From the NCBI GenBank assembly GCA_964187785.1, contig OZ076412.1:27032001-27096000 (forward strand): 64,000 nt of DNA, in the 5' to 3' direction. The position numbers and the translations under genes are program-made. Each line of letters opens with the position of its first letter. The first letter of the stretch is position 1. This stretch comes from Amphiscolops sp. MND2022 (lineage: Eukaryota). The notes beneath the pieces are model-generated. The model ran no database searches and was not told where the DNA came from. It saw nothing but the letters and a program-made list of their open reading frames with translations. Positions 5,801 to 63,980 of this stretch are shown in pieces.

Positions 5801-8800
5801 ACATCCATTCTTTTGATGTTTTTGAAGATTTTAAAAAATTGAAGGGGGACTCTTTAGAGACATTGAAAATTTTCGGAAAAAGTCTCACAAAGCCGAAAAA
5901 GAGGGGAAAGTCCCAGGAAGAAGGTTCCTAAACTTCCAGAACAGGATTTGGCTCTATAATCTGAAAGAAAATCCTAAATAGGAAGTAGAATAATGTTATG
6001 AAGAGTACATGTGTGTTTGTTGCAGTGAAGAAGAGCAAAGAGAGTCTGGTGAGTGTGACGGGGGCAGGGGCCAAGAGCAGCCAGGAGGACATGTCTGCGG
6101 AGGAGCACGAGGCCAAGATAGCCGAACAGAAGCAGAAGCAGCAGGAACTCATATCAGGTACCAGCCAATGTGAAATGAAAATGTGTATGTAGTAGGCCCA
6201 TGTTCAAAGAAATTGACAAATTCTTTTCTAATCTGAAAAACCTAGGAAATATTTTATACTTGTTTGGTTCTTAGCAGAATACTGAAGCGACATTGACGCG
6301 GGCTGTCAATTTTTGGCTCAGTTTGTAAAGGTTCGATTGGGTTTAGGAGAAATTAGCCTTCTGAGATTCTTGATCAATAGTGTTTAGGAGTTAGTTTGCG
6401 ACTATGCCGCCTCACTGGTCGCACCAGTTTGTAAAGGTTCGATTGGGTTTAGGAGAAATTAGCCTTCTGAGATTCTTGATCAATAGTGTTTAGGAGTTAG
6501 TTTGCGACTATGCCTTCCTAAACCTTTACAAAAGTTGTCTCTAGGTCTTCCGAGTTCGCAGGAAGGACTTTGTTTCGAGAGAAGAGTTTGAATATATGAA
6601 AAGAATTTGAATTAGTTCGAGTATTATATTCAACAATGTTTGTTTTTACACAATACGCAAGAATACAATACAAACAAAATAATGTAATCATCCAAGTTGA
6701 CACAAATATCCAATCAATAATATCTGAATTGTTTAGCATTCACCACAAATAAATACATCAATTATTTAGGGAGCAATGTTCAGGTAAGTTGTGTAAGTAC
6801 TATAAAAACTGGAATTTTCTGATCTTATTGTCCAACAATTTGGTTAGGACAAGTGTGCTGACTTTTGACCAGAATTACAGTCTATTCAGACCGGTTTGGG
6901 GTTCCTAGAGTTCTCAACAATGTAGTGAGAGTTACTAAGTCTATTGACAATTTACGTGACAGGTTTGTCACACGTTCTAGCTTATAGGAAGCGAAGAACT
7001 AGCTTATAGGAAGCTGAGAGTTAAATAAAATAGTTTTAGCCTATATGACCAGCCAATTACTAGGTCGAAGACAGGATTGTCTTGAGCATAGACTTATAAG
7101 AAGTCTTGCGAATCTAAGTAAATTAAGGGTCTTATCTAACCAGCATTCGCTAGGTTTTTGTTCGGACAAGATTGCCGATTGGGCTCGATCCAGAGGTTCG
7201 GTGCCGTGTTCTAAGAGTTTTAACCTATTGCAATGGACCAGCAAGTTTGCTAGGTCGAGAGGAAGACAAGTTTGTCTAAAGACTTTGAAGAAGTCTTGTG
7301 AGTCTAAGTGAGTTAAAGGCCTTATTTCAACCAGCAGTTTGCTAGGTTGCTTTTTAGACAAGATTGTCAGAATTCTGTTCAATACTTTATAAGGTTACAT
7401 GCATTTTACTTTTTAATCAGTTTGTTTTACTTGCAAGTTAGCTGCAGTTATTGAAATGATCTAGACTAGCAGTCGCTAAGTCTTGACGCAATCGCGTACT
7501 AAGAGGAAAGTGATCTCCGTCGAGAATTGTTTGGGAGCGTTTAGCTCTAGTTAGTTTTCCCTATGATTTTCATAGGAGAACCTTGTCGGTTGTTTGTCTC
7601 TTCAGTCACTAGGACTGGGGGTTGTCTATAAAAGACAGGTAGGAAAAGGGAGCAAAGAAAAAAGAGAGAAATTTTGAGTTGTGAATTTTGAAGTTATTTT
7701 CTAAGTTAAAGAAAATAACTAACCTGAAGTTTGAAGCAAAGATTGGGTCGGAGAGATTTGTTCTCGCAAGAGAGAGATTTTTTTGAGAGAGATGATTTAT
7801 AGCAGAGGCGAAGAGGAGAGTCAGAGTGAGAGTGTGTGAGAGATTTATGCGAGAAAATTATGAATCAATTTGCTAGAGTCCGGCTTTTTTATACGAGCCG
7901 ACCGAACGGTACAACCAATCAAATCGATTGGCGTTTTTCATTGGATACGAAATTATTTCGTCATTATCTCGTCAATATTTTGTCCATAATTGGAATCGCA
8001 TTCACTATTGGATGCAACCGAATAGAAGTCGGCGGGGATTGCATCAGCTACCGAATATGTTCGGCTAACCGAGTTGGCTGACGCAACTCTTTGTATTTGT
8101 CAGGGGAATTAATCCTCTCAAGTGGGGGACTTTGTTCCCACTTGAGAATTCTTTTTGTTTAAAATTGAGAATTTGGCCGTACAAGTGGCGCCTATTATTC
8201 TCTTTTCAGAGATATTTACTGGCACAAGTGGCGTCGCATATTGTCTTTTTCAGGGGAGATAAAAGATAATTGTTTGCACAAGTGGCAAGCGTTTTCTTTT
8301 GTAGAGGGGAATTCTCCCTTTCATATGACGCGCAGCTGTAATTTTGTTTATCTCTAAAATTCTTTCAAGCGTGCCTGGAGAATTGAAAGAATTTGAGTAA
8401 GAGTTCACAAAAATTGAATAAAAAAAAATTCTAGCTCCGATTGAATAATTTTCTAAATATGTTTTTTTCAAATATTAAATTGAAGAAAAAGTTGTGTTAA
8501 ACACAACAACTCACCCGGGGTTTAAGAATGATTAAGTTGAAAGGGGGGCATACAGGGTATTTATGACTTTTACTTCGAAAAATATGGAATTGTTTTTTAG
8601 CCAGGGGTTCTCTGGGTTCATGAGTTCATCATGTGGGATGAAGCACAAGATGGTGATTGCTGTATTGCTGGCTGTGGGAATAGGTTTCTTGAAGCACTCA
8701 CTGTTGTTGTTATTCGTCACAATGAGCTGTTTGTAGGGTTTGTAAATATTGCCTTGACCAAGGAGGTGTATCTCGATAACGCCTTGGAAGGGCCAAGTGA

Positions 8801-11800
8801 GTATCTCATCGTAGGGTCCCGGACACATAGCCAAGCATACTGACATGTATTTCCCTTTGGCAGTGTCGATGCCATAAGGATAAGCTCGTAGATGAAAGGT
8901 GTACCCAAAGGGTTGTGAGAAGAAGATAGGGCTACAGACGTCTTTTAGGCAATTAGGATCACAATAGGGTGCTCTTACATGAGACAAACTTTTTTCGTAT
9001 TTTTCAGCATTCTGAAAAATATCAGAGAATTGATCAAGCCTCCAAATAACTTTGTAGAGGTTCCAATCCCGTGGAATTGATTTCTTTTCGATACGAAGGA
9101 CTCGCATCTCAAGTGCGTCGAGCTTTTTACTGATCTCGTGTATCATATCAGAATCAAATGTGTCATCTTTATATTGGGTGATATTGAGTTTTTGTCGAAG
9201 CAATAGTAACTCATTGATTAGGGAGTCCGTAAGGGACCTCTCATCTTCCAATTGTTCAATAAGGGTAGATGAGCTTGTGTTCATCCTGATAGGTCGTTCT
9301 GAAATTCAATGGAAAAGACTTTAAATAAATGCTGAAATAGCTCTAATAGGTACCACAATTCTCTGGTAGCCTAGGGTCGGATTTTCCAATGTAAATTCTT
9401 GACGGTTAGAATCCCAGAATACAATATTCCAATGATTATATTCGCGTTTCAAAAGATAATTTAATTCGGTCCGGAATCGTGGGTTCCTGGTGAAAATATA
9501 TTTATTAGCAGCTTCCTCGTTTTTTCGTTGTTGTCGTAGTTTTTCGTGAGCCGAGAGGGAAGCTTTTTGCCTTTTGTGAGAACGCTTGATGGACGTTGAA
9601 TGAGGTCGTTTAGTGGGTAGAGGTGTTGTTTTTAAGTTGTTGGGCGGAGGAGGTGGTGCTGTTTCAGTAACACCTTCTGCAATAGTTTCCGTTGAGAGAA
9701 ACTCTAAATCTGTTGGGGAAAGCAAGGGGAGATCAAGTAGTCCGCTGTTGTCGAGTTTTGGTTCACCTGTTAATAACTCGATTTCTTCAGCCACAGTTTT
9801 GTCGGTTTGCATATTCTGAATACTAAACATAAAAAATACAATTACACTGGAGAAACAGTATGGGTATTCGAAGTAGGGGGCCTACTTATGGCAGGGTAAA
9901 TGTGTTCGAGGGTTTCGTGCTCATTGTAATTTTTGTCTGGAGGGGTATCTGAGACCATTGGGTCATGTTGGGGAACTTGATTAAGTGTTGATATCATCGA
10001 AACTGTGAATAGATTGTAGGTTGCTGATAGAAGTATTTTGCCAATACCCCAAGAAGCTCCTGTAACTCGGTGTAGTTCAAATGAGCGAAATGTTATAACA
10101 ATCACGTTGACCAAAAACTTGATAAGAAGAAATCCACCAAACCACTGTCCCAATTTGCTAAACCAGTATTCGATAATACCAAAAGTGCTGATGAACTGTT
10201 CCTTGAAATATCCTGGTGATATCATGTTATCCACATAGAAATTTGTACGTGGTGCAAAGTAACCAAATTCGTCTGGTCCTTTGTCGGCAGCCGAAGGTAT
10301 AATGAGTTCTCGTGAAAACTTTTGCAAAGCATTCCTCGAAGCCGCGCTGATCAGAATATTGTCCCAAAAATCGCTGAGTTGTCCTTTTGTGTACATTCCA
10401 GCATCTTGAGACTCATCGAAAGCATCTTTTGTGAAAGGAGAAATCTCTTTCGGACCGAAGATAGCAGGTCTATCTCTATGTGTAGGCTCTGGATTCAAAG
10501 AAAACCAAGAGTCCTTGTCCTGCATATCTAGTTGAAAAAGGTTCTTTATTCTGTCTGTGCAATTTTGGGTATTTGCGTTGGGGTAGGTTTGTCTGGTGAT
10601 GGGGTCTACGAATTGAATTTGTCCCTTGTAGAATATGGGTATTTTGTCATAACAATTGTTCATGACATGAAGAGGTGATGAAATCAGTGGGCATGAATAG
10701 AGCCAGGCGAGACTACCATCAGTTTCAAGGAACATGGATCTATTTCCAGTAAGCATGTATCCAGCAAGGCGTGGATTTTCCAAAGACAGCATTAAAATAG
10801 TTAGAATTTGGGTCCGTTCCTGTTCGCACTGGTTTTTCAACATTTGAATTTCGGAAGATTGCAGTGCTCGGGTGCTTTCGAAGAACAGGTAATCCAGTTT
10901 TGTTCCAACTTGCATTTCATAATCCATGTTGAGCCAAGTATTAACGTACTTGTCTTTAACTGTGGCATCTCTGTTGTACACGTAAAGTCCAGGTTTCCCA
11001 GAATTGTCTGTGGAGTATTGGAGGGTATAAGATCCTCTTGTTATCCCCATCTTTCTTCCGGAAGCCATGTCAAATCCACCGGTATGTATCACAATGTACA
11101 TGGACTCGTAATTTGTGGGATATACGTCGTTTGGTTTGTTGCAGAATTTTTGAGGGTAGTTCTTCACTTCGAACAAAAATTTGGAGGAAGAATCGTTGGT
11201 GCTCACCATGTGATACCTGTGTTCATTCTTTATCATATTTACATGTTCTTCTTTCAATACTGAAAGTACACAGTTATCAGGGTGATCCCAAATATAGGCG
11301 TAGGGATCCAAGGATGTGCTTTGGCAACCCAGATCGTCAAGTTTGCATGGGAGAGGATTTCCATTTACATTGTGAACTGTTCCATCTCTCAGCTTGACGG
11401 GTAGTGTAACATCTTGAATGTGACTCTCAAAAGTATCTTTGATCATCCAAGACCTTCCAGTGCAATGGTTTCTGTTTTCTTCGCTCTTCTTTCCATTCGT
11501 ATAGGACTGAGTTAGTTTGTTTCCCTTTTTAAACTGGACCATGTGATCCAATATTTGTATCTTTCCCTCTTCTCGTGCTCTTCGACATTGTTCGGGGCTC
11601 ATATCGATATCGCTAGTTATTGTACTTTGTTCTGCATCGATACTCGCATGGTCATGATATCCACAATGCCATTTGAATCTACTGTGCTTTAGGCGGCACA
11701 TAGTGGCATTGAGTTCTGTACGAAAGTGCTTCGTGTAGACAGTGATTATGGCTGGGTTGATTTCAATATTTTCTGGGGAAACGTGGCAGGGTCTCACTTG

Positions 11801-14800
11801 ATTGAGCGCATATAATTTGTTTTCGGTCATTTCTCCACAGTCATAATGCGATACACTAAGCCTTTGTGCGATGTCATCCAGGTTTGGATTGGGGAGGCCA
11901 TTGATTAGGGAGTAGCACGTAATGAATAATATCAAAATTTTACTGCACATTTTGGAACTAACTGGGAGAAATCTTAGGTGTTTGCCAGAGCTCAGTTTTC
12001 AGCAAACTGTTAAGAAAAAATCAAAAAGAGGAAAGTTAAACGGTAGCTTGCTAACCGAGAGTTGGTGGAGTCGAATTTGACAACCAGTTAGAATCAAATT
12101 GATTCTATTGTTGAAGAATGTTCTTCAGAAACGAGAGTTGGTGGAGTCGAATTTGACAACCAATTAGAATCAAATTGATTCTGTTGTTGAAGAATGTTCT
12201 TCAGGAACTGAAACGAGACAATTATTGCCTAACGTTTTCAACCAGGGTGAACACCGAATTTGTATTTGGTAGCTTGCTAACCAAAAATAGGTGTAGTCAC
12301 AGTGATCACTGCTTTAGATTTGAGATTGGTGCACAGGTCTATGGATTGAAGATTTCAGTGTCTGGCTCAATTGATAGCCGTTTTCATAAGTACTGAAAGT
12401 ACACTCTGTTATCAGAAGTGAAGTTATGGAATTTGGGATTTGAAGTGAAAGTTGAGAAAGAGGATCGTAAAATTTTATTTACCAAACAAAAATTTATTTC
12501 AAAACGGAAATGAGATGAAATTTACAAATCATAAAACTGGATAAGATCCTTGTACAATTTGCTATATTTAGGTGAAGTGACACACTCAATGTCCATGACA
12601 CTGGTTAATTCACCTAACACAAGCAGATCAAATTTGGTGATGTGCCTTTCAGGCTTCTGTTCGTATGACAGGAGGGAAGCGGCTAGTGACGCGTATAGAA
12701 GGGTGTCCTTGTAGATTTGTTTCTGATACTTTTTGTCAGGCAGGTCGTAACGTTCAAAGTGAACGCAAATCTTGAATTCGTAGGTCCAAGTCCACCGAAT
12801 ATAGGTGATCAAAAATTGTTTGTTGTTTTCAGCAACGAAAATAGTCCAGGGGCAATTGAAACTGAGTTCTTCGTACTTTTTCTCCCAGAGGGTATCCCAG
12901 TAAATAGTAGGAGGAGGATAAATTTGAGTAATCCTCGGTTTTGTTCTTTTGCGTGAGTCTTTTTTGAGAATAGACTGTGGGTTCATTAGAGATGGTTGTT
13001 TTCTCCTCTGAACAAATCCGAAGGTATGTCTCCCACAAATTTCATAAGGTGGAGAAAATAGTCCCAATATACTGAATGTTGATCTACAAAAACAATATCT
13101 TTTTTCGAGGTGATGTAGTGCTTTACATAGATATAGATTCTGTCTTGATGCAGCTCAGTTCTATAGATCCGGTAGAATTCGTTTTCAATTTTGATGTAGG
13201 TCATACGACGAACTGAAATAGTCAAAAGTTTTTTACCCACGGCAGAGATTGATACTATGATCGTTACCGTGCTGAAAAGTTATTTACCCACGGCAGAGAT
13301 TGATACTTTGATCGTTACCGTGCTCGTTTTTGTGAAAAATTCTTTACCCACGGCAGAGATTGATGCTATGATCGTTACCGTGCTGAAAAGTTATTTACCC
13401 ACGGCAGAGATTGATACTTTGATCGTTACCGTGCTGAAAAGTTATTTACCCACGGCAGAGATTGATACTATGATCGTTACCGTGCTGAAAAGTTATTTAC
13501 CCACGGCAGAGATTGATACTTTGATCTTTACCGTGTTCAATTTTGTGAAAAAGTTATTTACCCACGGCAGAGATTGATACTATGATCGTTACCGTGCTCA
13601 ATTTTGTGAAAAAGTTATTTACCCACGGCAGAGATTGATACTATGATCGTTACCGTGCTCAATTTTGTGAAAAAGTTATTTACCCACGGCAGAGATTGAT
13701 ACTATGATCGTTACCGTGCTCAATTTTGTGAAAAAGTTATTTACCCACGGCAGAGATTGATACTATGATCGTTACCGTGCTCAAGAATTTCTGAAACGAA
13801 GGACTACAAATTAGTTATCAGTTTACGTTAAAATGACAATGAAGAGAAGAGAAAAAGAATTTTGACAAGAAGACTTTTATTTACAATATTAGAAATCTTC
13901 CATTTCCTGCCACAGCTTTAGAGTTTCAAGGAAATCAATGTACATATCATTGTAGCTCGATTTTTTACAAACATTGTCCATCTGGCTAGAGATGGTGTTG
14001 AGAGCGTCGACTTCTTGTTTTGATAGCTGTGGTTCGGGTTTCCTCATGAACGTTACTAACGCCGCAGTGAGGGACGCATAAAGGAATGAACCGGGTTTGA
14101 CCCATTTGTGGTATTTTTGTTTGGACCGGTAGTTATGGAATTTAACTTCTACATCAGCAGTTGGGTGCCAACTCCAACTTAGTTCGTCGATGATCATCGA
14201 GATTTCTTCTAATTCGGGCATGATATTCCAGGGGCAGCATTTGAAATTTATTTTGTTTATAATCACAATAGGGATGTCGTACGCAATGACAGGCTTCATC
14301 TTTGGTTGGCTTGGGCTGAAGTTTGGTCAAAATAGATACTAAAGCACGAAAATGCTGCTTGACTTACTTGGTAAAATTTAAACAAATTTTACAATTGCAA
14401 GAGCTGGATTTTTCAAAAAGCAAAATTTCATACTATTGTTTTTGTTCTTTTCACAAGGTTCTCCTTTAACAAGGCTTTGTCTTGTTTTCTTTTGTTTGTC
14501 TACTTCTTTTGTTTCCTTTTGTAGTCTTTATTGAATAGATTCTTGCATTCTTTTGTTTTCTACATGCTTTTGTTGTTACATGCAGTGGTTCCTTTTGTAA
14601 ACTCCTTTCAGTTGTTGACTTTTGTTTTTCGTTTTCTATGGTTTGCATCACTGGCTTTCATCGGCTTGTTTTGTAAAGATCGCGCTTTTGTTGTTGGATA
14701 ACGGCGGGTGCCATATGTGTTTTTGAAGTATAGTGTTGAAGTTAGCTTTGTATTGAATGCGCTTTTGTTATGGTTCAGTTCTTTTGGTGCCATGTGTTTT

Positions 14801-17800
14801 CGAGTGGTTTGAAAAGTTGTTTGTTCACAATGTGCTTTTGTAATGGTTCAATTCTATGGACGCCATGTGTGTTTTTGAAGTGGTGGCCCAAATTCGGTTT
14901 GTGTTGAATGCGCTTTTGGATGTTATTCTGATCTCTTCACATTTACAAGTAAGTTCGGTTTTCATTTTCAACTTTTGCTTTTTCTTGAATTTTTGGTAAC
15001 GTGTATATGACACGCTCGACCGCCGAAAAAGAAGTAGAGAAAAAAGTTTGAGCCATATGGTGGTGAAGCTTGGAGAGAAAGAAATGAAAGAAAAACAATT
15101 TTGAAGAACGGAGTGGAAAATGGGGGAAATTTTTAAACGGCATAAGGGGGGTGGTGAAAACGAAATTTGAGGTTGTAATTTAGTTGCGTTTCTTTAGGCT
15201 GTTTAGTACACGATGAACCGTTTGCCATTTTCTACCGCGGATGATGCTTATCTGGCACCAGATCTTTTTGCGGATATGCGATCATTGGTGACTGATTTGG
15301 AACTACCAATGATGGCGGGGACGACAGCGGTGGGCGAGGTGTTGCGACGCCCAGAACCACTCCGGAGAGCAGTGAGATTGGCGTTAGGCGAGCACGTAAG
15401 TTGTTGAGTGGTGTAACTTTTGAAGCTAAGACATTGTGGAGAAGAGATTTTGAATTAGTTCTTAGCACTAAGAGTAAAAAGGAAATGGAAAGTATTGTCT
15501 TTAGCTTCGATTGTATAAGTTCTGTAGTTGCAGTTTCTAAGTACGATAAGGTAAACAGAGACGGAATGTTTGTGAAATTAATGTTTTTGTGTATTGATTG
15601 CAGTTTGTTTTAGTGGAGATCGAAGCTACAGTCCGGAGCCAAGGACGTTTGGATTTTTAAACTAAAAGCCATTGTACGGGGATGGGAGATGACTGCTCCA
15701 CAAGATCGGCCGGACATAGCCCGACGGCTGGATCGGAGTCAGTTTTTTCAAGTGCTGCAGGACTTGGCGGAGTTGGGGGGATATATGGTGTGCCTCTGCG
15801 CGGGGCATCCTAAGCCGCCTCCAAATGGGGCGACTGTTGTCCCTGCCGAAAGGGAAGATTTATTATAAACTTTTGTTTATATTGTAAATATTTTGTTTTT
15901 GTGTTTTTATTATTTTAATATTATTTTTGTAATACTTCTGTTTTGACTTTAAATTGTAGGTTGAGAAGTAAGAGAACGTTTTTGACAGTTATAATTTCTA
16001 AAAGTTTAGCTAGAGGAGAAGGATTAGCTAAAACTTTGAGGAATCGCCTCCGTGGAGGCTTGTTGATTAAAACATCAACAATCACAGTGCTATCTATTCC
16101 AGGCAGTTCGACCATTTAAGGCGAACCGCCATAGCACAATTTTTCTTTGTAGTTTTTGTCTCTTGGGGAGACTTGTTGGCGAAAAACCGTCAACAGTCAC
16201 AGTGGCATCTATTCCACGCAGTTCAACCATTTAAGGTGAACCGCCGTACCACAAAATTTTTGTTAACAGAGTTTGTAATTAGGTGATATAAAAATGTCAA
16301 ATTTTTTGAAAAGACAGATGATCAAAAATCCCGATCCAAGAAGTTGTAGGTAACAAGCATGTGTACTGATTACAATTTCCAATAAGGCTGGGGAATTGTC
16401 CAGTGTTATTCGGGGCCAAAAAAAAGGACCGAAGAATTTGGGATTCTGAAATAAGGGTTGACACAATTTTGTACACAATTAAGGTTTTTTATCGGGGGGT
16501 AATTCTGTCCCTGTGCCTCATGACGCAGAGAATGGTGTGTAGTATCCAAATTATGTAGAGCTAGTGTTGTGAACTGAAAAGGTAGATCAGGATTTTGGCG
16601 GGACTTAGTATTAATTGATGTAATAAATGCTAGTGTTATCATTTATTTTTTAATCTTTATAGCCTTTTCTCTCAATGTCTCGGAGGGAACTGCCAGGGGT
16701 GCTTCGTTCGTATTTGGGGTTTTTGGGTTTTTCGGAAAACCGTGTAGTTACCTTCTTTTTGAAGTTAGATAGTTTTCCTGTTTTTGGGGAAACTTGATCA
16801 GGGGGAGACACTGTGTGGATTGGAGGAACGGATGGGAGAACCGGTGTTCTCTTGGGTAGGGGAGTGTTAGAAGAGAATGCGAGTGGTAAGACTGCCACAG
16901 GGAGACGTGGTGTTTGCATAGGTGGAAGTGGATTTGTTCCACAGCTTTGAGGGATACGTTCCCTTAGAATGGAATTGTTAGACGTAGATGGGATCGGGGT
17001 GTGAAATTGTGGGGTTTTCGGAGAAAGGATTCCAGAATCGGTACTGGGGGAAAATTCAGAACCCTTAGAAGTATTGTTATTCGATCCTGAAAGTGGAGTG
17101 ATAATGAGTGGCATAAAATCTAGTTTATGCTCAGGTTGTCCCGAGTTGTGTTTGTCAATTTGAGTTTGGACCAAACGCTTGTAAAAATTATCGTCCTGTT
17201 CTACAGGAGCGTAATTTGTCAGCAATGGGGGTAAAGTTTCCTCTTTGGGAAAATACTCTAGTAAGTGGTTTCGGTGAGTTACTTTAACATTTTCGGGGTT
17301 CTCATCTTCTTTAATCTCGTATGTGGTATTGGTTATTTGTTTTGTTACCGTGAAAGGTCCCACTCGTAATTGTTTCAATTTCTGTGATTTGGATAGGTCG
17401 GGTTTGTGATTCTCCAATAGGACCTTTTGACCAACCGCGAGCGGTCGTCCTAGTTTGAAACGGTTCCGATACTCATGAGCTTTCGATGTGATCTCTCTAC
17501 ATCTTTTGTAGGTAGATGAGTATATTGATTTGAAGTCGTTTTCTCTTGTAAGTAGTTCGGAAGATAACTGTGGTCTAAGGAGTCGATCGAGGGACTTGTT
17601 TCTGAGGTTATTCTCACTATGGGTGTGAGGTTGTAAATCTGCACAAAATTCTGATTTACATTGTTTGTTTTTGTCGCGAATTAGCCCAAGTTTCAAAGTC
17701 ATCGGTATTTGAGGTTTGACGCCGAAGACAATCTCGTAGGGGGTCATACCCGTTGTGTAATTTACGCTTGTGTTATGGGCAAAAGCGAATTTAGATGCAA

Positions 17801-20800
17801 GTGTTGACCAGTTGTTTCCTGACTCGTTGGTGAAATTCCTCCAGTATCTCATGAGGTGTTTGTTTTGGACTTCAACTTTGCCATTTGTCCAGGGCGAATA
17901 AGCAGTGCGCGGTGCCAGCGTTATTCCGAACTCTTTGGTCCAATTTACAAAATCGCGGTTGATAAACGCTGAGCCATTATCGTGGACAATTTTTTGGGGA
18001 ATGCCGTAGGATGTGATCCATTTTTCTAGGGCATTGATTGTGGTCTGAGCTCCTGTATCTCGGACCGGATAGACTCCAAGAAATCTTGAGAATGCATCTA
18101 CTACAACTAGACAATGTGTATTCAGGTTACTGCTTGGTCTGATGGGACCTTTGTGGTCGATATGGATTGTTTTGAAGGGGGTTGTCTCGAGTTCGCCCCA
18201 TTGTTCAAGAGGAGCTTCTTGTAGATCGTGTCGTTTAGACTTGTTAGTCTGGCATTGTAGACAATCTTCTATCAGGGATACTATCCACTTATATCGTCCA
18301 GGCCAAAAGAAATTTTGTCTGATGTTTTCGAATGTTTTAAATATGCCTGGGTGGCCACTGTGAGTATGAGCGTGGGCCAGATTAAAGAGGGGTAGGAATA
18401 ATGATAAGGGGACACAGATTTTCATTTCGCATTTGTCCGTCCCATGAATAGGTTCGTTATAGCAGAGTAGGTTGCTTTCTTTATCGAGAAAAAGTTGATT
18501 GAAATTGTTGAAGTACGACAGCAAAGCCTTCGATTGGTGAATCTCTGGTGTTTTGGCGTTCGGCTTATTCTTGTTTCTAACCCAAGCTCGTACAATTTGT
18601 AATACAGGATCGTTGATTTGTTCTGCAACTAAGGTGGTGATGTCCAAATCAGCGGTTTTAGAGTAATCGCTGAGTTTTTGTAAGAGGTCTTTGGTATCAA
18701 CGTGTGGGAATTGCTCGACATCTAAATTCTTGTTCAATAGAGGCCTTTCACTTTTCTGTGAAATGTTCTTTTCTTTCGCAGTTGATTTATCGCGATAGAA
18801 CTCGTGATCTTCGTTGGAAAGGTGAAGTTCGGCGATTTCCTCTTCATCGTCACTGGAATCGGTTTCGATGTCGTCTATTCTACTATACTCGGGTTCATAC
18901 TGTATTTTGTATGAGGGTAGACAGAGGTTTTTGTATTGATTGATGGATTTTCCCAGTTTGAAACAGTCAGCGATGTCTTGGCGAGTCGCCATTACTGTTT
19001 GTTGGTTCTCATAGTGCTCTACTTCATGTTCTTCTCCGTCATTCTTGAGATGGAGTAGCCTTTGATCTTTGCCTTTTTGGCAGAGGATAGGGAAAAAGTC
19101 ATTGCTGCCACAATGACCATCGTCATTATGCTCGATTGCATAGTGTACTTTCGATCCAAATTCATCATAGAAACTGATATCTCGCGGTATTTCTTTGTGT
19201 AGTTTTTGTAAGTTTTGGGTTTCTTCCAGCGTGACATTTCTACTAAGTATGTCTGGGAATGCGAGGTTGGATCCTTTAGTCCAGATGATTTTGAGGTTTT
19301 GGAACTTGGTGATGATTACCTGATACTTGAAAAAGCGATGTGAAAGCTGTCCTTTTCTTCCCCAGAGGTATAAAATAGGTTTGTGATCGCAATAGAGGTA
19401 TATTGGAAATGGAGATCCAATAATGTAGTGTTCGTATGTTTGGAGTGCTGATACTATGCCACACAATTCGCGATGAAGGGTGGACATCTTTTGTTCAGCT
19501 TTGTCAAATACGCGGGAATTGAAAGAAACTATCCTTTTTCCTTCTGGAAACTGTTGAACTAGTATACAACCAGTACCAACGTTCGAAGAATCGACGTGTA
19601 TGTGGAAGGGGTACTCAGTTGAAGGGACAGCAAGAATAGTGTCCTCACATATACGACTTTTTATATCAGTGAAGAGGTCTTCGTGTTCTTTCGTCCATTT
19701 GAAAGGCGTTGTAGCTTTTATCAAATCGTAGAAGGGCTGGCTATCCACGTGTAAGTTTTTGATATAGCAACTGTAAAATCCAAGACAGCCAAGTACTTTC
19801 ATCACATCTCTTTTACTTTCGGGTGATTTTAAGTTTTTTAGATCCTGTACTCTTTTTGCTAAGGGTTGTATTCCTTGTTCAGAAATAACATGTCCTAGGA
19901 ATTTGACTTTCCTGATGAAGAAATTCGTCTTCTCAGGTGCAGCTTTAAGTCCGGCTTTCCTCAGGAGCTGATGGTACTCATGAATTATCGTGAACATTTC
20001 TTGTTTGGTCTGAGCCTGCATAAGACTGTCATCAAGATAGGTGATAGCTTGTTTTCGCTTGATGAGGGGCTCAAAATGTATAGCCATGAGACGGCTAAAA
20101 AAGTTTGGAAGTCCACAGAGTCCGTAGAAACCACGTACATACGTGTACTGTTTTCCGCCGATAATAAAACTAGTGAGTTTTTGGGTCTCGTCGCTCAAAG
20201 GTACTTGGTGATATGCGCAGGATAAATCGCTGACCGTGAAGTACTTTCCGTTAATCCGAGTCATAATCATCTGAATGGGATCCAATGGCCATGAGTAATT
20301 TGTCAGATCTGTTATGGAATTTAAGTAGCGGGCGTCGATTACTAACTTTACGTAGTCTGCTTTGGGCATCAGAATGATCGGATTGACAAAAAGGGAACCT
20401 AGTTCGTCATCGTCTCCCATTTCTCTAATGATATCGGCTTCTTGGAGTTGTCCAAGTAACTTCTCAAGTTTGTCCTTCAAGTGAAGGGGTACTTTGCTTG
20501 GTCGTTGTTTCTTGAGTTCTGAATTGGCTTTGAGTGTTACGTGAAATTTTTGACGTACTTTTCCCACGTCGAATTTGTGTTGCGAATACACGTCTGCTGA
20601 GTCAATAAGCATATCTATTAGGACAACCAATTCTTCATCTTGGAGGTCAGTATATCGGAAATCGAATTTTTTCACATATTCCTTGATTTCTTCACGCTGA
20701 TATTGGAGGTAGTATTCTATCAAAGCGTCGTTATCTTCTTTTGTTCTAAGTTCAACAAATTGTTCTGTACAGGGTGGCTGACAAGATTTAGCGTCCGTAG

Positions 20801-23800
20801 CAAAATCTGTTTCAAGTTCTTCAGTACCATTAGCAAATTGTTCTGTATAATAGTCAATATCTCCTTCTTCTACTTCTTCTTTTCGTATGGAAGCGTTAAC
20901 AAGTTGGAGGTTCGGTTCGTTTCGTGATACGATCTCGACTTTAATATGTCCATAATCGAAGCTGTTACGGATTATGTCCAAAGCTCCTTTCCAGTGGATG
21001 TTATCTAAGCCATCTTCAATTTTGGGTATTGAAATTGCAGGTATATTGTTTAGTTGTGCGTGTCCAACCAAATTTTCGATGCAATTGCGAAAATCTTCGG
21101 GTTTAATTTTTTCGTAACATCTCTTTTTTGCAACTAGTCCATAGATGAAGCGATTGGCTTCGTTATCCCAAAAGGGTAAAACTGATCCGACGAAAGGTTT
21201 CGACTGGTTCACGAAATTCTGAAAATCTTTCTTCTGTTCGCACAACCTTTTTGCGAACGTGGTTGTCATTTTTCCATCTGCTGAGACACAAAAGGCTAGA
21301 TTTGCATTTGAGGCTCGAAGGGTCTCGCCGGAGCCGTGGCTTAGAAAAACTTGTTGATCTCCTTCGTGTTCGAAGGGAACTGTTGAGTGTAGCAAGAAAC
21401 AGTCGTTGTAGTCTGGGTTTTCCTTTAAAATTGTGTTGACCATCGTGACACAATCCTTTATCTGGAACTTTGGTCGTTCTTTTTCCTGTAGGTCTATGAC
21501 AGCATGACCAATTATTCCTCTATTAAGGGTTATTTGGTGATTTCGATTATTTTCAATCAAAATTGGCAGGTGGGATTCGGACTTCGTACATAAAACATTC
21601 ACAAAGGTAAGTCCTGTTTTGACTGCATTTTTGTGGGGTGTGAATGATGTTCCGGGTGCAAAATGTCTGTTATTTTCGCGGGAGTACTTGTGTAGGCGGG
21701 TAGTTTTGGCATCGATGCAAATTGGGTTATCTGTTCGTATTGTTTCGACCTTTGAAACGTACGGGAAGGGTTTGGTAGCACAAAGGTTACCGTAGCAAAT
21801 CGTGTTAGGACTGTCTTTCAATTCGATTGCAGGCAAATCAAAATGTAATTTAGAAACAAGTTGACGGCAGAAATCTATTCCCAGTAAATTGGGTGTCTTC
21901 GCTTCTGTTATCCAAAACTTTAGCTCTACAGGATGGAGTCCATCCGAGTCGAAACTGAATGTGATTGTTGTTGATCCAAGCATCGGTATAACTTCGCCAG
22001 TATAGGTTTTAGTCAGCTGTTTGCTCCTGACTACCGTGATGGGTTGTCCAAACTGTGCAATTTCCTCAAAAGCTCTGTAATTGATGATTGAACAGGCTGC
22101 TCCTGTATCTAGCATGAATTCTATTTCTAACCCACTATCTTTTTTGGAGTCTCCGGTGGGAAAAAAGAAGAGATTTAGGTGAAAACGTGATTTGAGGTTA
22201 CTTTCTTCGTCAGGTCGCGGAGACTTTAGCAGTTTAAAGGGTTGAACGAGATTGTACTAACTCTGTCCTGTCCTTCTTCGTCAATGAACTGTACGGAGTT
22301 TGGGAAACTGTTATTGTTGGTTGGGAAATTTCGGTTGTACTCAGAATTTGTGTTTTGTGGTCGTGCACTGAAGTTATACGGGCTATTTGGCCTATTTCCA
22401 GTATAGGGTGTATTGTTTCGCAAATTGGTACTAGTCGAAGTTGGTCTACTACCTGAAGAGTGATTGTTATTGCCACTGAAGTTGTTGAAGTTGTTCGACT
22501 GCTGAGGATTATTTCGGTTCCAGTTTTCATTTCGATTGTTCCCTTCGTTAGGTCTGCCTCTGTTGAAGTTTTGGTTCGACTGTTGGTTGCTTCTTTGATT
22601 ATTGGTGAAGTTCGGTCTTGGTGAAGACTGATAATTTTGTTGTGATCCAAATCCGGGTCCCTTCCGTTTGTTGTAGTCGTTGGTGAAGGTGACCTTCTTC
22701 TCTTCATTAGCTCGTGATTGTGCTCTCTTGGCTTCGTCATCGTAGATCTTCTTTCGGCAATATTGGAGTGTATGACCATTCCTTTGGCAATATTTACAAA
22801 ATCGTGTGATGTTTTGGCGGGACGTGTTATTTACGTCTACTGCAGAGACGTGATAGTCATGACAGTGAGAGGATGGGCATCCGTAGGGTAGGGAGTTAGT
22901 TACAGCTAAAGAGTTGATTTGTTGTTCTTTTAGCATATTCTTCATTGCGTTGATGTCTTCTCGTAGTTCGTTTATCAACGTTTTTTGGTTTTGTGAGGAG
23001 TTCGGAGCTAGTTGAGAGCTGATAGTAAAAACAAGGTCTTTATTAGTTACGTGTTCCTGAAATTGTTCCCAAGTAGCGTTGGGGTGTTCAATTAGGTATT
23101 GGTGAGCCTTGTTCTTTAGTTCGTTGGGCGTTAGTCCTCTGACTGCAAATTCAATGTACTTTTGCCTTCTTTGAGCGTTCAGTGCAGCTCTAGCTGCATT
23201 ATCAGCATTTTCTTCGTCTGGCCATCCTCTATCGACAGCTCGTTTCACTCGGTGAAAGTAGTTCTTTATTATTTCTTCATTCCCTCTGACACTGTTTTCT
23301 GCAGTTATTCTGTATCTGTATTTATCTCTATTGTCGGAAAAGCGGGTTAGGAAATGGGTTCTAATATGTTGCCAATCGTGTCCATCTCCTATGTTGTCTG
23401 TATACCACTCGGCGGCAGGTCCTCTTAGTAGGGATGAGAAAAGTGCTTTTTTGCGAAATAAGTATCTTGCTCGATCGTCATCATTGTCGGGTTCATGGCC
23501 CATCGAGAAATTGATTTTGTTCTCAACAGTTGTGAGAAATGATCTGACATCTTGTTCGGGGTCGTTTCCTGAGAATTTGTCCAAAGCGAGGTCGGGAAAT
23601 GAAACTGTGTTATCTGCCATTCCTCTCTTTTGCTTGAATGTGCCTCACTGGTCGCACCAGTTTGTAAAGGTTCGATTGGGTTTAGGAGAAATTAGCCTTC
23701 TGAGATTCTTGATCAATAGTGTTTAGGAGTTAGTTTGCGACTATGCCGCCTCACTGGTCGCACCAGTTTGTAAAGGTTCGATTGGGTTTAGGAGAAATTA

Positions 23801-26800
23801 GCCTTCTGAGATTCTTGATCAATAGTGTTTAGGAGTTAGTTTGCGACTATGCCTTCCTAAACCTTTACAAAAGTTGTCTCTAGGTCTTCCGAGTTCGCAG
23901 GAAGGACTTTGTTTCGAGAGAAGAGTTTGAATATATGAAAAGAATTTGAATTAGTTCGAGTATTATATTCAACAATGTTTGTTTTTACACAATACGCAAG
24001 AATACAATACAAACAAAATAATGTAATCATCCAAGTTGACACAAATATCCAATCAATAATATCTGAATTGTTTAGCATTCACCACAAATAAATACATCAA
24101 TTATTTAGGGAGCAATGTTCAGGTAAGTTGTGTAAGTACTATAAAAACTGGAATTTTCTGATCTTATTGTCCAACAATTTGGTTAGGACAAGTGTGCTGA
24201 CTTTTGACCAGAATTACAGTCTATTCAGACCGGTTTGGGGTTCCTAGAGTTCTCAACAATGTAGTGAGAGTTACTAAGTCTATTGACAATTTACGTGACA
24301 GGTTTGTCACACGTTCTAGCTTATAGGAAGCGAAGAACTAGCTTATAGGAAGCTGAGAGTTAAATAAAATAGTTTTAGCCTATATGACCAGCCAATTACT
24401 AGGTCGAAGACAGGATTGTCTTGAGCATAGACTTATAAGAAGTCTTGCGAATCTAAGTAAATTAAGGGTCTTATCTAACCAGCATTCGCTAGGTTTTTGT
24501 TCGGACAAGATTGCCGATTGGGCTCGATCCAGAGGTTCGGTGCCGTGTTCTAAGAGTTTTAACCTATTGCAATGGACCAGCAAGTTTGCTAGGTCGAGAG
24601 GAAGACAAGTTTGTCTAAAGACTTTGAAGAAGTCTTGTGAGTCTAAGTGAGTTAAAGGCCTTATTTCAACCAGCAGTTTGCTAGGTTGCTTTTTAGACAA
24701 GATTGTCAGAATTCTGTTCAATACTTTATAAGGTTACATGCATTTTACTTTTTAATCAGTTTGTTTTACTTGCAAGTTAGCTGCAGTTATTGAAATGATC
24801 TAGACTAGCAGTCGCTAAGTCTTGACGCAATCGCGTACTAAGAGGAAAGTGATCTCCGTCGAGAATTGTTTGGGAGCGTTTAGCTCTAGTTAGTTTTCCC
24901 TATGATTTTCATAGGAGAACCTTGTCGGTTGTTTGTCTCTTCAGTCACTAGGACTGGGGGTTGTCTATAAAAGACAGGTAGGAAAAGGGAGCAAAGAAAA
25001 AAGAGAGAAATTTTGAGTTGTGAATTTTGAAGTTATTTTCTAAGTTAAAGAAAATAACTAACCTGAAGTTTGAAGCAAAGATTGGGTCGGAGAGATTTGT
25101 TCTCGCAAGAGAGAGATTTTTTTGAGAGAGATGATTTATAGCAGAGGCGAAGAGGAGAGTCAGAGTGAGAGTGTGTGAGAGATTTATGCGAGAAAATTAT
25201 GAATCAATTTGCTAGAGTCCGGCTTTTTTATACGAGCCGACCGAACGGTACAACCAATCAAATCGATTGGCGTTTTTCATTGGATACGAAATTATTTCGT
25301 CATTATCTCGTCAATATTTTGTCCATAATTGGAATCGCATTCACTATTGGATGCAACCGAATAGAAGTCGGCGGGGATTGCATCAGCTACCGAATATGTT
25401 CGGCTAACCGAGTTGGCTGACGCAACTCTTTGTATTTGTCAGGGGAATTAATCCTCTCAAGTGGGGGACTTTGTTCCCACTTGAGAATTCTTTTTGTTTA
25501 AAATTGAGAATTTGGCCGTACAAGTGGCGCCTATTATTCTCTTTTCAGAGATATTTACTGGCACAAGTGGCGTCGCATATTGTCTTTTTCAGGGGAGATA
25601 AAAGATAATTGTTTGCACAAGTGGCAAGCGTTTTCTTTTGTAGAGGGGAATTCTCCCTTTCATATGACGCGCAGCTGTAATTTTGTTTATCTCTAAAATT
25701 CTTTCAAGCGTGCCTGGAGAATTGAAAGAATTTGAGTAAGAGTTCACAAAAATTGAATAAAAAAAAATTCTAGCTCCGATTGAATAATTTTCTAAATATG
25801 TTTTTTTCAAATATTAAATTGAAGAAAAAGTTGTGTTAAACACAACAAGTTGTGTCTCATTCTTCATCGAAAAAGTTACTTTTATCTTTCTGAGTTCAAT
25901 TCATGTTCTTTGAAATTAAACTACAAGAATATTTTATCCAATTACAGTGAAAGATATTGTTCAAGATCTCGAAATAGCGTGATATTTCTACCAAAGAAAC
26001 CTTTGAAGAAATTGAGAAATACTTTAAGGTTGCTTCTGTAATTTTGAACGTTGTTTCTGCGGAGGGGTACATCGATGTTGAAATCCACAAAGGGAGTCTT
26101 TTCAGATGTATAGAAGAGAATGTATACTTCACTGACAGTAAACTCGGATTTTTTACTTGTTTGTATTTAATGAAATCAGTAGTCACAAAAATTTTTGATT
26201 GCACCTTGCTGGGCTTCTAATTAGCGAGAGGTGTTGTTTCATTTCCATGTAAGGAAATACATGTATTGTCATTCTAATTCGTGATACTATTTTTGACCGA
26301 ATGCGTTCATTTTAAAATCAGCCTATATTTGTGTTTGTACTTATTTACACTCCCTTTTCCCCTAGTCTTCTCTACCTCCCGAGCATCTATAAAAAGAAGG
26401 AAAAACGACCTCTTTCTCTATTCAACTCAATCGTCGTCGACGCAAATTTCAATTTAATCCCATTTTCTCCTTCGTTCCGTCTTGTTTTACGGTGACGTAA
26501 ATGTACATCCATATTTGTCGCATCGGTTTCGCTTTCGTGTCGTGATTAGCGGCATTGGTATTAGCAAGCTTAGCCGATTTATGAAGTAATTGGCTTTGGG
26601 TACACCGAAAAAGTGATAGTATTACGTCATTGGGGTTGGATGACGTCAGCAAAGGATGAATGGGATAAAGGAAGGAATGAAAATAGAATTGTGAGTGGGA
26701 GAAATTCCCCAGAGTTGAAAAACAGTGAAATGAAGTGGATGCTAAGGTAGAACATCATGGAATGGTGACGTCACGTACTTCCACATCACGAATTGAGTGT

Positions 26801-29800
26801 GGCTCTCAAAAGCAGAAAGTTGTGACACAAATAGCATTGATTCACCTCAAATTGAAGATCTTGGAATTCTAAAGTTATCAAAAGATGCTGTAAAAATATT
26901 TCACATCTAATAAAAGACAGTTTTTGAGTTTATTCTAGCAGTCAAATAAAACTTAGCTGATGACTGGCAGGATTTTGGTGGTGGAAAATGAGAAATTTTA
27001 AGTGGGAAAAATTAATTAATTAATGTACTTTTATACGCATCAAACAATTGGAGAATGGTGTTTTGCACTACAGAGTACAGCATAGAAATGTCTCTGGTAT
27101 GCTGAAGTTGACTTCAAACAGGTTGCCTGATTTGAAGACGTTTTCACAAAACGTTGCAACTGAAACCCTCTTTGCCTGAAAGAACCCATCTGGCCCAGGA
27201 CAACTTGCTGTCAGTGTAGGGAGGATATCGGAACCTATGGTTGGCCCCTTCCACCAATCGTGTGGGTACCTCCATACAAGACTTACCATGAGAAAAGGCA
27301 TCAAAGGAGAACTTGCCATGGTAGCAGCCGGTGCCACTTTCTCCCACGCCACCGAAGGGCAAAGAAGGCAAGCCTCCTTGTAGCATTGCGTCATTGGCCA
27401 CAAACATACCACAAGTTGTAGAATTGCGCCATGCATCAATGGTTGACTTGGCGTTTGTGAAGACGTATAGACTCAATGGTTTGGGCTTGGTCTGCACAAA
27501 ATTGATGGCCTCGTGTAGACTCTCCACTGGCATGATGGGCAGAACTGGCCCGAATATCTCTTCCTGCATACACTTCTGACTTTGTTTGGCGTTTGTTATA
27601 ATTGTAGGACTGATGTACCGCTTGCTTTTGTCACGTCCTCCTCCATAAAAGATTTCCACGCCGTCTTCCGTGAGAAAAGATTCCACTCTGTCGAAATGTC
27701 TTTCGTTGACTATCTTCCCGTAATCTGGCGAGCTTGATGCATCGCTGGTGTAAAAGCTATCGATTACTTCCTTCAGCTGATTCTTGAGCTTTTCCTGAAA
27801 TTGAAACATGAGTTGATGCCATATTTAGGAAAAAGAAATGTGAATTAAGAATCGGTATAAAATATACGTCGTTCAAAAATAGAATTCCAAAAAACTGTAC
27901 ATTTCTAATGATATGACCGCAAGTTTTGATATCCTATTCTTTTCTGTTTATTTCATATACATGAAAGACATGGAAAGTGACATGGAAAACCATATTTAGA
28001 AGCTTAATTTTTAAAAATAGCCAGTTTTTGCTCCCCCTAGTATGGCGAACTATTCTATGCAAATAATTAGTGTATCTTGGTTTTTTTCTAAAATACCAGA
28101 AACAAAGGCAATTTTTATTCATTTGCTTGTAGAATTGATTTGGTTGAGGATTCAGACTAATTGATTAGTTCAGTTCGAGGTGGAAAACACAAACCTGCAT
28201 TTCTTTTGAGCACAATACGTAATCAGGGGCAATACAAGTCTGTCCACAGTTGACCAACTTGGCCCAGGCGAGTCTATTAGCTGTTATGGTGAGATCTGCA
28301 TCATCTGCCACGTATACTGGACTTTTGCCTCCCAGTTCCAAAGTAACGGGCGTCAAATATTTGGCAGCCGCAGTCATAACTATCTTTCCCACGGGCGAGC
28401 TTCCTGTGTAGAATATTTTGTCAAACTGCTGCTCCAACAGAGCCGTGGTCTCTGGTATACCCCCTGTGACGACTTTGAAGCATTCCTCGTCTAAGTACTT
28501 AGGTACCAGTTTCTCGATAAGCTCCGCAGTGGCTGGTGCCATTTCTGATGGTTTCAGTATTGCGCAGTTACCGGCTGCGATGGCGCCCACTAGCGGCAGG
28601 AAGGTGAGCTGCACAGGGTAGTTCCACGCGCCAATGATCAAAGTGACCCCATAGGGATCTTTTTGTATATAGCAAGACATGGGTTTGTACAACAGAGTTT
28701 TGGAAACATACTCAGGTTTCATCCAACTGCTAACGTTCTTCACGGCATGCTCGATGTCTGTTTCGAGGATATCGGTTTCAAACAAAACTGCTTCCGCCCT
28801 GCATTTGCCCAAATCTTTTCTCAAAGCCTCCACGAAATCGCTCTCATTTTTGGTAATGAGTGTTTTCAAGGCCTTTAGTTGATCTTTTCTGAAAGATTCA
28901 GTTTTCGTGCGCCCGGTTAAGAAAGCGGCCCGCATAGACTGTACCAGTAATTCCATATCTTCTTTCATTGCTAGGATGCTAGCTGATGTTGTGTGTTTGA
29001 ATTGGTATGAAAGCAAGAAAGCAACTAGTTTCAGACTTGTGAGACTAATAAACTGAGTTCTACGCCAAAGTACGATCACAGGACAGAAAATGTACGTCAA
29101 CTAAATAGTATTCTGGTGCTATTTTAAGATACACTGAGATGCTAGTTTCTATTGCTTGGATATTTCTCACTAACAAGAATTTAATCTACTGAATATTTGC
29201 AATCAAATCTACAGCTGAATGCGATCTAGAGAGTCAATGGCTAATGCCTTCGGCACCACTTCTGTCTGATTTCATTATGGTATCATTTGGATGCTTGCAA
29301 AGTGTGCATAATCTGCGGACTTTGTTTCATATTTTGTAAAGGTTTTATTTCACATCAGCCCAAGAGGTCGTTCCAAATTCAGCTGATCGTGGATAAGGTC
29401 GTTAGAAGAATATTTGGAACTTTTCAAAACTTCATTTTCAGCTCTGTGAGTAAATGTTCTGAGGATAACCTCAATGAGTTCGAAATATGCAGTTGAAGAT
29501 TTTAAACGTGAAAACAGCCCAATTTTTTTATGATTCATATGTTGTATATTTTAAAATAAATTCTCAACCTTGCTCTCATAAGAATTTTTAAAATAGTAAT
29601 TCAAAACATATTCTTCACTTTTGGTCAAGAAAACCACTTGCTAAGGTTTTGAATATTTGTTTTTATGGGACCGTTATTAACACGGAATAGGCTCTGCAGT
29701 TTGCAGCGTATATGACACCCTATTTTTCTCAGGCATGGCCTCACTGCAACATGGGCATCCCGGACGGTTTCTTTTTCAACATGAACTGGGTTTCAGTACG

Positions 29801-62489: not shown

Positions 62490-63980
62490 TCAAGTGGCAC
62501 AAAGATGGGAAAAAGCACCTGAAACGAGTTTCTGGACGACTATGGGGGGAATATAATGACTCAGAGTGTCGGCGGACTGGGAAGATTTTGGCAACGTCTC
62601 TCTAAGGTGTTTGTGACCCGCGTTTTCAGCTACTTTTTGCATGTTTGTGTTGCCAACTTTAGAAGGAATCGTCACTTCTATAACGACGCCCCCTGGTGGC
62701 ATAAACGTGCTCATCACGTGACCTGCACCATGTATGGCAAAAAATATGTCGGTCTTGCTCATGAGCTCAATTTGCTGTTTTCCTGACAAAGTGTCTAGCT
62801 GAACCTCCGTGATATTTATTCTGTCTTGAAATTGTCCCATGGTTGATAAAACTTCCTTCTCGTTGGAAACTTTGCGTGAAATTTTCCCAGCTGGGTTTCC
62901 CAAATGATTCACATAATCGCGTCTCCAAACTGCAGTTAACCTTAAGGAAGAGCAGTTTCTCGGAATTGGATTTATTCCTAACTTTTCATAGGCCTCTTGA
63001 CGGAAGGTAGAGAACATTGTACGTATAGCAACAGATCGGGTTTTGAGGAAAAGACTGTGACGTCTGTGGAAACGAGCGACAAAGTTGGAAGCAAAAACAT
63101 TTTTTGGTGGTCTTGTTTGGTTGAAGTCTGTCAGCTGATGAACTTGGTCTTTTCCAAAAAACACGTGCCAAAAACTGTCTGTTGGGCTTGCAGGATGTCC
63201 GTCCAACCAAATAATGTGAGTGACGTCATCAGATGATGCTACATCCATACTTTTGATGATATGAAATACGTCGAATATGTCAATGACTGCCCAGAACGGA
63301 TTTGCGTACTCGCTCCGAATGATGCCAACCAGCCAATCAAAAACAAGGAAAGGAGGCGCTGTAGGTGACGTGGTTTGATATGAGAAGCTAACTTCAGAAA
63401 GATATTGGATCTGAAGATCGGCAGTGCACCCTATCTCGACCTTTGACAGTTTCACTGGGGGATCATCGCTCTTTTTACAAACCTGAGACAAAAAAGGGAG
63501 CTTGAAGTAGAATATTTCGCCTCTGTCTTCGGTAGATTTGGAAACCTCGTTGGTTGAAATTAAAGCATTTCGCAGAATTGTAAACTTAGTTTCAGTAGAA
63601 ACCAACTTGCCTGAAAATGAACAGATATCACCTTTCAAGTCTGCAAAATTGGGCATAACGTTTTGCCTATTTTGCCCCGTAGTTTGAGAATGCTGGTTCT
63701 TAGATTCAATTTTTTCACTGTCAAGTTTAGGACTTTCGGTTTCTGGTTGCCTTTCTTGGCCCCTAGGTTGGATATGTTGGTGTTTCTGATAAAAAGTAGG
63801 TAAAGATGAGTCTTGAGCTGCTTCTTTAGCCAGAAGAAAATCAGATAAATCGGGTTCCGTTGCACGATGTCTGCTGAGAGATAGAGCAAGCAGGAAGAAG
63901 AGGTATATAAACACTAGTAAATAAATCCATGATCTAATTTTAACAATCGGGCTCTTCATCTGATGGCAAATTGACACCAT
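62490..63980 (-). CDS. Glycosyltransferase family 61 (EOGT/POMGNT2-like), single exon, 496 aa
   Basis: Type II anchor (WIYLLVFIYLFFLLALSL) and stem, then RRDY..H.....ISRKVSNEKEV, QIELMSKTDIFFAIHGAG and FMPPGGVVIE, which are typical of the GT61 C-terminal half. Confidence 0.82.
   Translation of the reverse strand: MVSICHQMKSPIVKIRSWIYLLVFIYLFFLLALSLSRHRATEPDLSDFLLAKEAAQDSSLPTFYQKHQHIQPRGQERQPETESPKLDSEKIESKNQHSQTTGQNRQNVMPNFADLKGDICSFSGKLVSTETKFTILRNALISTNEVSKSTEDRGEIFYFKLPFLSQVCKKSDDPPVKLSKVEIGCTADLQIQYLSEVSFSYQTTSPTAPPFLVFDWLVGIIRSEYANPFWAVIDIFDVFHIIKSMDVASSDDVTHIIWLDGHPASPTDSFWHVFFGKDQVHQLTDFNQTRPPKNVFASNFVARFHRRHSLFLKTRSVAIRTMFSTFRQEAYEKLGINPIPRNCSSLRLTAVWRRDYVNHLGNPAGKISRKVSNEKEVLSTMGQFQDRINITEVQLDTLSGKQQIELMSKTDIFFAIHGAGHVMSTFMPPGGVVIEVTIPSKVGNTNMQKVAENAGHKHLRETLPKSSQSADTLSHYIPPIVVQKLVSGAFSHLCAT

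Follow-up and report, generated by a model that had tools for sequence, protein, structure and literature searches.

The window analysed here, a 64-kb stretch of a 1.07-Gb animal assembly (G000:C4:27032001–27096000), contains a Ty3/gypsy LTR retrotransposon with an env gene, which lies on the minus strand (all coordinates given below for features of the element refer to this strand). The LTRs, gag, pol (RT, RNase H and integrase in order) and env are all present, and the element is young; its 5' LTR (23658–25848) and 3' LTR (6319–8509) are identical across 2191 nt. The order of its parts is gag, pol, ORF C, a tandem array, ORF A, ORF B, env, a 169-aa ORF and a TRAF/MATH ORF. A domain search located gag (22226–23620), pol (16650–22115) includes an OARD1/TARG1-like macrodomain insert, and env (9842–11950) encodes a Monjiviricetes-type fusion glycoprotein (PF24664). 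ORF C (13889–14299, 136 aa) is a paralog of ORF B (31% identity, E 2e-16) with a purine at position -3, and the tandem array (13224–13779) consists of about 10 copies of a 51–61 nt unit. The 169-aa ORF (9321–9830) has a strong candidate splice acceptor immediately before its Met7, the 250-aa TRAF/MATH-domain ORF (8532–9284) has a candidate acceptor 14 nt upstream, and the 5' LTR has a candidate donor (CAG/GTTAGT, GT at 25062–25061) downstream of an AUG-free leader.

Several further features of this locus are recorded here in their own right. The Pol macrodomain (20931–21353) lies between protease and RT and matches PDB 4j5q (E 6e-11), a similarity that was missed by Pfam. At the end of gag there is a TTTAAAC heptamer (22232–22238), which matches a -1 frameshift slippery site, and gag-pol expression is likely to proceed by frameshifting there. 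The 3' end of the LTR carries a 106-nt duplication (23642–23853 and 6319–6514) that repeats a primer-binding-site-like motif. The TRAF/MATH ORF just ahead of the 3' LTR is a captured gene with a strong candidate acceptor of its own and, speculatively, might act as an immune-signalling modulator. Elsewhere in the window (27144–28968, 33079–33426, 40061–45853, 47247–55334 and 62490–63980) are ORFs of the aldehyde dehydrogenase, RUN-domain and glycosyltransferase-61 kinds, together with a decayed gypsy-like element and a member of BEL/Pao.

The stop-start junction and its relatives

Between the tandem array and env are two small genes that share their boundary. ORF A (12986–13204), the first cistron of the cassette, encodes a 72-aa orphan protein and ORF B (12522–12986) a 154-aa orphan protein, and both have weak starts with C at position -3. 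The stop codon of A (TAA, 12988–12986) and the start codon of B (ATG, 12986–12984) overlap as TAATG (12984–12988), as the first-pass annotation had described, and the two motifs that it reported upstream, viz. GUGGGA at 13036–13031 and a second UGGGA at 13066–13062, are likewise present. Both ORFs are real coding genes under purifying selection. In comparisons with three copies from subfamily 1b, dN was 0.07–0.09 against a dS of 0.58–0.62 for A, and 0.06–0.15 against 0.71–1.42 for B. Neither protein has a Pfam match and both were blank in the Atlas; the homologs of B are all unnamed records (66–99% identity), and those of A are limited to three relatives and two weak partial matches. Structure models of A and B (pLDDT 69 and 77) gave best Z scores of 4.8 and 4.9; Foldseek returned nothing at E<=0.001, and neither protein was assigned a fold. 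Family 2 lacks the N-terminal extension of B (12878–12986). This extension, which contains two UGGGA motifs, is similar to the C-terminal half of A (a YWD motif and a tblastn overlap) and is perhaps an old partial duplication.

Relatives of the cassette were collected from the host's own genome, where they comprise subfamily 1a (young), subfamily 1b (80–88% identical) and family 2 (about 40% identical), the family labels being our own. Ninety loci, a non-random choice from the top hits, were fetched, and 74 intact copies of A could be read (26 from 1a, 19 from 1b, and 13 and 16 from the family-2 subfamilies 2t and 2o). The gap between the stop of A and the following AUG is -1 in all 58 copies of 1a, 1b and 2t, and 0, +2 or +3 in the 16 copies of 2o, so that all 74 copies fall between -1 and +3, with four junction geometries. 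Because it is conserved in this manner, the overlap exceeds what chance would produce; conservation of the UGGGA motifs was not established. The expectation that both TAATG and UGGGA would be conserved in related elements is thus borne out for the spacing of the junction, but not for the motif, since RUGGGA is found in 43 of the 45 family-1 copies and in none of the 29 from family 2. Spacing, in short, is conserved and the motifs are not.

These geometries also bear on the proposal that B is expressed as an A-B fusion by frameshifting or readthrough, or from an internal promoter or IRES, which we regard as very improbable. The B frame is open for 56 codons upstream of its AUG in subfamily 1a and one record (P0006) is a 171-aa fusion, both of which would suit a fusion product. 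However, this frame is open for just 7 codons upstream in subfamily 1b, the relative frame of A and B varies by subfamily (gaps of -1, 0, +2 and +3), and no slippery heptamer is seen in the sequence here.

The TAATG is one of the junctions in an accessory cassette whose ORFs are closely tiled. In family 2 four to six selected ORFs follow one another in a tiled chain with this junction at its head, in the order A, B1, an optional bridge of 10 aa, B2, E (36–40 aa) and D. All gaps along the chain lie between -4 and +10 in 20 of the 29 family-2 chains, the other 9 being broken by decay. For B1, B2, D and E, dN is well under dS in most pairs, and one B1 pair (L094–L095) has dN equal to dS. The cassette is bordered on either side by spacers of about 1 kb that contain no long ORFs, and hence its tiling does not reflect just a shortage of room. 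The 150 scored hits to D are all 63–100% identical, and none reaches a third family. The micro-ORF E between B2 and D (L083–L099, L127–L139) is itself conserved, with an in-frame length change and a dN/dS of mostly 0.1–0.3.

The UGGGA motifs and the host 18S rRNA

The first-pass annotation had explained the junction by termination-reinitiation of the type found in caliciviruses and influenza B, in which UGGGA tethers 18S helix 26. In such systems the TURBS presents an unpaired purine-UGGGA motif that pairs with the apex of ES7/helix 26, and a P1 stem ends 12–23 nt before the AUG (PMC11921876). Pairing of UGGGA with this apex is described as a requirement (PMC11921876; PMC3035654), and in yeast full activity is reported only when the motif matches the yeast loop (PMC11921876; PMC3035654). 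The junction described here shares the UAAUG geometry, an upstream RUGGGA and a predicted helix ending 12 nt before the AUG with the TURBS of caliciviruses, influenza B BM2 and Hapavirus (PMC11921876; PMC3035654). Its stop and start lie within a few nt of each other and GUGGGA has the purine that the motif calls for; the distal UGGGA is preceded by U and departs from the purine rule.

The host ribosome is where the likeness to TURBS systems fails. The 18S sequences of the host, which are very divergent in a way reminiscent of acoels, were retrieved and helix 26 was located by cmscan with RF01960. The apex is U-rich and lacks UCCCA in all 4 readable 18S copies (two near full length and two degenerate), a result that covers the copies in the assembly, from which the main rDNA array may be missing. 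The duplex of GUGGGA with the host apex has a predicted energy of -0.4 kcal/mol, compared with -7.4 for a matching hexamer. Thus, unlike in the TURBS systems, the host ES7/helix-26 apex is not complementary to the motif. A host-adapted TURBS was also considered and rejected: the best 11-mer duplexes to the host apex (-2.7 to -6.4 kcal/mol against a 1% background of -5.0) lie at differing positions in four representatives, and no conserved host-matched substitute motif was found.

Both motifs are made up of codons of A. The distal UGGGA (13062–13066) consists of the Trp47-Asp48 codons, which are fixed by the protein, and is therefore forced (P=1.0 in synonymous redraws). The proximal GUGGGA (13031–13036) consists of the Val57-Gly58 codons and arises in 8% of synonymous redraws. 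Two UGGGA motifs within 100 nt upstream are met at 1.0% of element positions, and two further copies of the motif are located downstream of the junction within B (12899 and 12887). The Val-Gly codons retain the motif in 16 of the 17 family-1 copies compared, which is in favor of a TURBS. However, the family-2 copies without RUGGGA include 13 that retain TAATG, and 2 of those 13 have no UGGGA of any kind; the distal UGGGA is also absent from 9 of the 19 copies of 1b and 2 of the 13 copies of 2t.

Folding was predicted for the region upstream of the junction. A P1-like helix of 8 bp (12999–13058; arms 13058–13051 and 13006–12999) would close 12 nt before the AUG, within the range given for P1 stems (PMC11921876), but a helix of this kind appears in 14.5% of synonymous redraws (P 0.145) and is not significant. 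It also does not covary: one C-G pair is broken in 14 of the 16 subfamily-1b copies with no compensation. A P1 stem should have C-G as its fourth pair; in this helix C-G is the fifth pair, or the fourth if the end pair frays. The GGG of the motif is paired in both the MFE and centroid folds, as predictions in which the MFE frequency is 1–11%, whereas the TURBS motif should be unpaired. The longest stretch has a folding z-score of +0.2 and the three shorter ones have scores of -0.9 to -1.2, none of them unusual, and an Rfam search returned just 2 chance-level hits. The TURBS reading is hence largely refuted and we consider it scarcely credible; the UGGGA motifs are almost certainly by-products of codons.

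Possible routes to the expression of A and B

With the pairing mechanism set aside, part of the original proposal of a bicistronic subgenomic mRNA stands: A and B are real and tightly coupled genes that can share one mRNA, their spacing being kept across families that are about 40% identical in protein. Our best reading of the cassette, to which we assign a probability of roughly 0.35, is that a spliced, polycistronic mRNA is translated through leaky scanning. Splicing would join the LTR donor with an acceptor ahead of ORF A to give a subgenomic RNA, and ribosomes would scan its AUG-free leader, some of them initiating at the weak AUG of A. The remaining ribosomes would slip past this AUG and two more weak AUGs to initiate at B, in the manner of RTBV and badnaviruses. 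The fusion of stop and start would then be mainly a matter of tight packing, and it may also permit some reinitiation. Leaky scanning and reinitiation without a TURBS, the two routes that act at the level of translation, are together somewhat better than an even bet.

The -3 position of A is a pyrimidine in all 74 copies of both families, whereas 13 of 13 tubulin and histone starts of the host carry a purine there (from 15 rows, minus one that was non-tubulin and one duplicate). The starts of gag, C, env and TRAF also have a -3 purine, as does Met7 in the 169-aa ORF. The first start is therefore weak, as leaky scanning demands. A strong candidate acceptor (13791–13798, score 5.6) would open a 586-nt AUG-free leader to A, and a further candidate acceptor (13213–13221) lies 8 nt before A. 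From the acceptor at 13790 to B, a distance of 804 nt, there are only four AUGs (the start of A, two others and the start of B), all of them weak. The interval between C and A (13205–13888, 684 nt), much of which is tandem array, contains no AUG, and its counterparts in two relatives are likewise AUG-free (630 nt in L061 and 584 nt in L080).

Leaky scanning also predicts that upstream ORFs should be purged of strong internal AUGs, and such a purge is found in family 2. In L094 and L087 the upstream cistrons have 0 internal AUGs with a -3 purine where 3.4 are expected (P about 0.01); the figures are 0 against 2.2 in L083 (P 0.06) and 1 against 3.7 in L095 (P 0.02), while weak AUGs and control ORFs match expectation. 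In A of the present element (72 codons) there are 0 strong internal AUGs against 0.47 expected, which is not significant; because this A alone has no power, the statistics of the purge come from family 2, where the four tested subfamilies are related and not independent. Among known systems, RTBV and badnaviruses provide the precedent, with fused stop-start ORFs, weak starts, few AUGs and leaky scanning (PMC5902531).

Several observations argue against leaky scanning. The AUG of B, with C at -3 in 45 of 45 copies, is weak, as is that of D in most family-2 copies, and the terminal cistron of a leaky-scanning mRNA should have a strong start. There is a -3 purine at B2, and at B1 in 11 of the 16 copies of 2o, which would restrict the leak to E and D. 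Further, a good acceptor is present before B in 45 of 45 family-1 and 13 of 13 2t copies. The acceptor before B leads to the principal rival, that B has its own monocistronic mRNA produced by cis-splicing from the LTR donor, or by spliced-leader trans-splicing, to an acceptor at 13008, and that the overlap is incidental. A dedicated spliced mRNA for B was named at the outset as the case that would overturn reinitiation, and it is a live rival which we hold to be a serious possibility, short of even odds.

The candidate acceptor for B (13008–13016, predicted exon start 13007) lies 21 nt before the AUG, on the Leu-Phe-Arg codons of A, and is host-like. Scored with a matrix built from host myosin genes (63 acceptors called and 45 kept), its AG at 13009–13008 reaches 2.75, which places it in the top 1.6% of 1031 AG sites of the element and at the 36th percentile of real host acceptors; 4.3% of synonymous redraws attain this score. 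Candidate acceptors are likewise present for A, env, TRAF and the 169-aa ORF (that of C is weaker, and gag and pol have none), and the LTR donor at 25062 matches host donors. LTR-element ORF3s are described as typically arising from spliced messages (PMC5408684), and spliced-leader trans-splicing of 30% of genes is reported from an acoel genome (PMC9911081). Against a dedicated mRNA, however, the AG at 13008 derives from conserved Phe-Arg codons, the synonymous change over codons 63–72 is reduced only to a borderline degree (P 0.064), and the start of B is weak, unlike those of host genes and of the other spliced ORFs. The weak start of A and the purge of AUGs are also left unexplained by it. 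The site fails in 16 of 16 copies of 2o, even though B1 in these copies is selected (dN 0.09–0.14 vs. dS 0.51–0.65).

Acceptor predictions along the family-2 cassette count in favor of leaky scanning. Within 60 nt upstream of the family-2 ORFs, strong acceptors are found only for A (median 7.8), with none for B1 in 16 of 16 copies of 2o, none for B2 in 18 of 18 copies and none for D in 25 of 25, D having weak candidates 72–120 nt upstream. These missing acceptors are weak evidence, because the acceptor test also misses env in most copies (env passes in 1 of 22 family-1 and 1 of 23 family-2 copies). Spliced retrocopies were sought with an exact pattern in which a nucleotide other than G comes after the LTR donor exon, so that exons beginning with G are missed, and 0 matches were obtained. 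The junction pattern gave 70 matches, of which two had no matching A hit and are internal deletions rather than acceptor joins. Inside A, at 13083, there is also an acceptor-like site (score 4.8) stronger than that of B; the first AUG after it is Met54 of A, which would begin a 19-codon ORF ending at the TAATG.

The weak starts of B and D, together with the strong start of B2, fit context-independent reinitiation better than leaky scanning. Serial termination-reinitiation along the cassette independent of a TURBS, as in SART1, hypoviruses and victoriviruses, or with the assistance of a TAV-like factor on the model of CaMV, is a further candidate, which we consider rather unlikely. The narrow range of the stop-to-start gap across four geometries is in favor of such a route, as are the short gaps maintained along the family-2 chains between spacers free of long ORFs. 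B, D and E have weak contexts, which agrees with a restart that does not depend on context, a property described for TURBS-type reinitiation (PMC10275272), and examples that lack motif 1 are reported (PMC5972666). However, serial reinitiation gives no reason for the weak start of A or for the selective loss of strong internal AUGs, and no conserved upstream signal is evident: synonymous conservation over codons 54–72 gives P 0.14 in family 1 and is not seen in family 2. The 10-aa bridge, moreover, may be a by-product, because its start Met already exists in B1. The fuller proposition that up to six selected accessory proteins are made from one spliced mRNA by serial TURBS-independent reinitiation, perhaps with a TAV-like orphan protein, is in our estimation improbable; if true, it would amount to a pararetrovirus-style polycistron operating on animal ribosomes.

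Relation to known polycistronic systems

Leaky scanning, the reading that we prefer, gives the cassette its closest counterparts in RTBV and badnavirus polycistrons (PMC5902531), which have tightly joined small ORFs, a weak first start and few, weak internal AUGs, and in green-algal bicistrons (PMC11291117), which show the same pattern of weak starts and few AUGs. Unlike these, the present cassette belongs to an animal Ty3/gypsy element, lies between pol and env, is probably carried on a spliced RNA and has up to 6 cistrons (in family 2), and it is known here from sequence. Stop-start coupling as such is already known in SART1 and several viruses (PMC5972666; PMC10275272), and the UAAUG coupling of SART1 and the reinitiation of CHV1, victoriviruses and LINE-1 resemble the junction as motif-1-free stop-start overlaps in retroelements or viruses (PMC5972666; PMC10275272). 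SART1 differs in being a non-LTR element whose coupling links ORF1 to ORF2 and is described as needing a downstream structure. The TAV-transactivated polycistron of CaMV (PMC5972666; PMC5902531) likewise has tightly spaced ORFs in a row within a reverse-transcribing element, but no TAV-like protein was identified here and the weak-start signature is not needed in the plant system.

The element as a whole resembles errantivirus-like, env-carrying Ty3/gypsy elements (PMC13524379) and ORF3-bearing LTR elements (PMC5408684), in which LTR, gag, pol and env are accompanied by extra, usually spliced ORFs. It is set apart from them by five accessory ORFs (A, B, C, the 169-aa ORF and TRAF/MATH) and by the Pol macrodomain. 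The first of these accounts (PMC13524379) makes no mention of acoels, splicing or accessory ORFs, and within the literature covered, most subscription journals lying outside it, no tiled multi-cistron cassette is described in an animal LTR element. For animal ribosomes, the translation of several long ORFs from one mRNA is generally considered to need special help. The lineage described here forms a natural series, with dozens of copies, four junction geometries and a cassette that is tiled, weak-started and purged of strong AUGs, and it makes the choice between leaky scanning, reinitiation and splicing directly testable in a retrotransposon.

A general check for annotations of this kind also follows from the analysis, viz. 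that UGGGA near a stop-start junction says little before the 18S loop of the host itself has been read. As a separate observation on the 18S sequences of this genome, an array of short 18S-derived fragments that end at helix 26 (L113–L119) is located at about 19.97–20.00 Mb of G000:C8.
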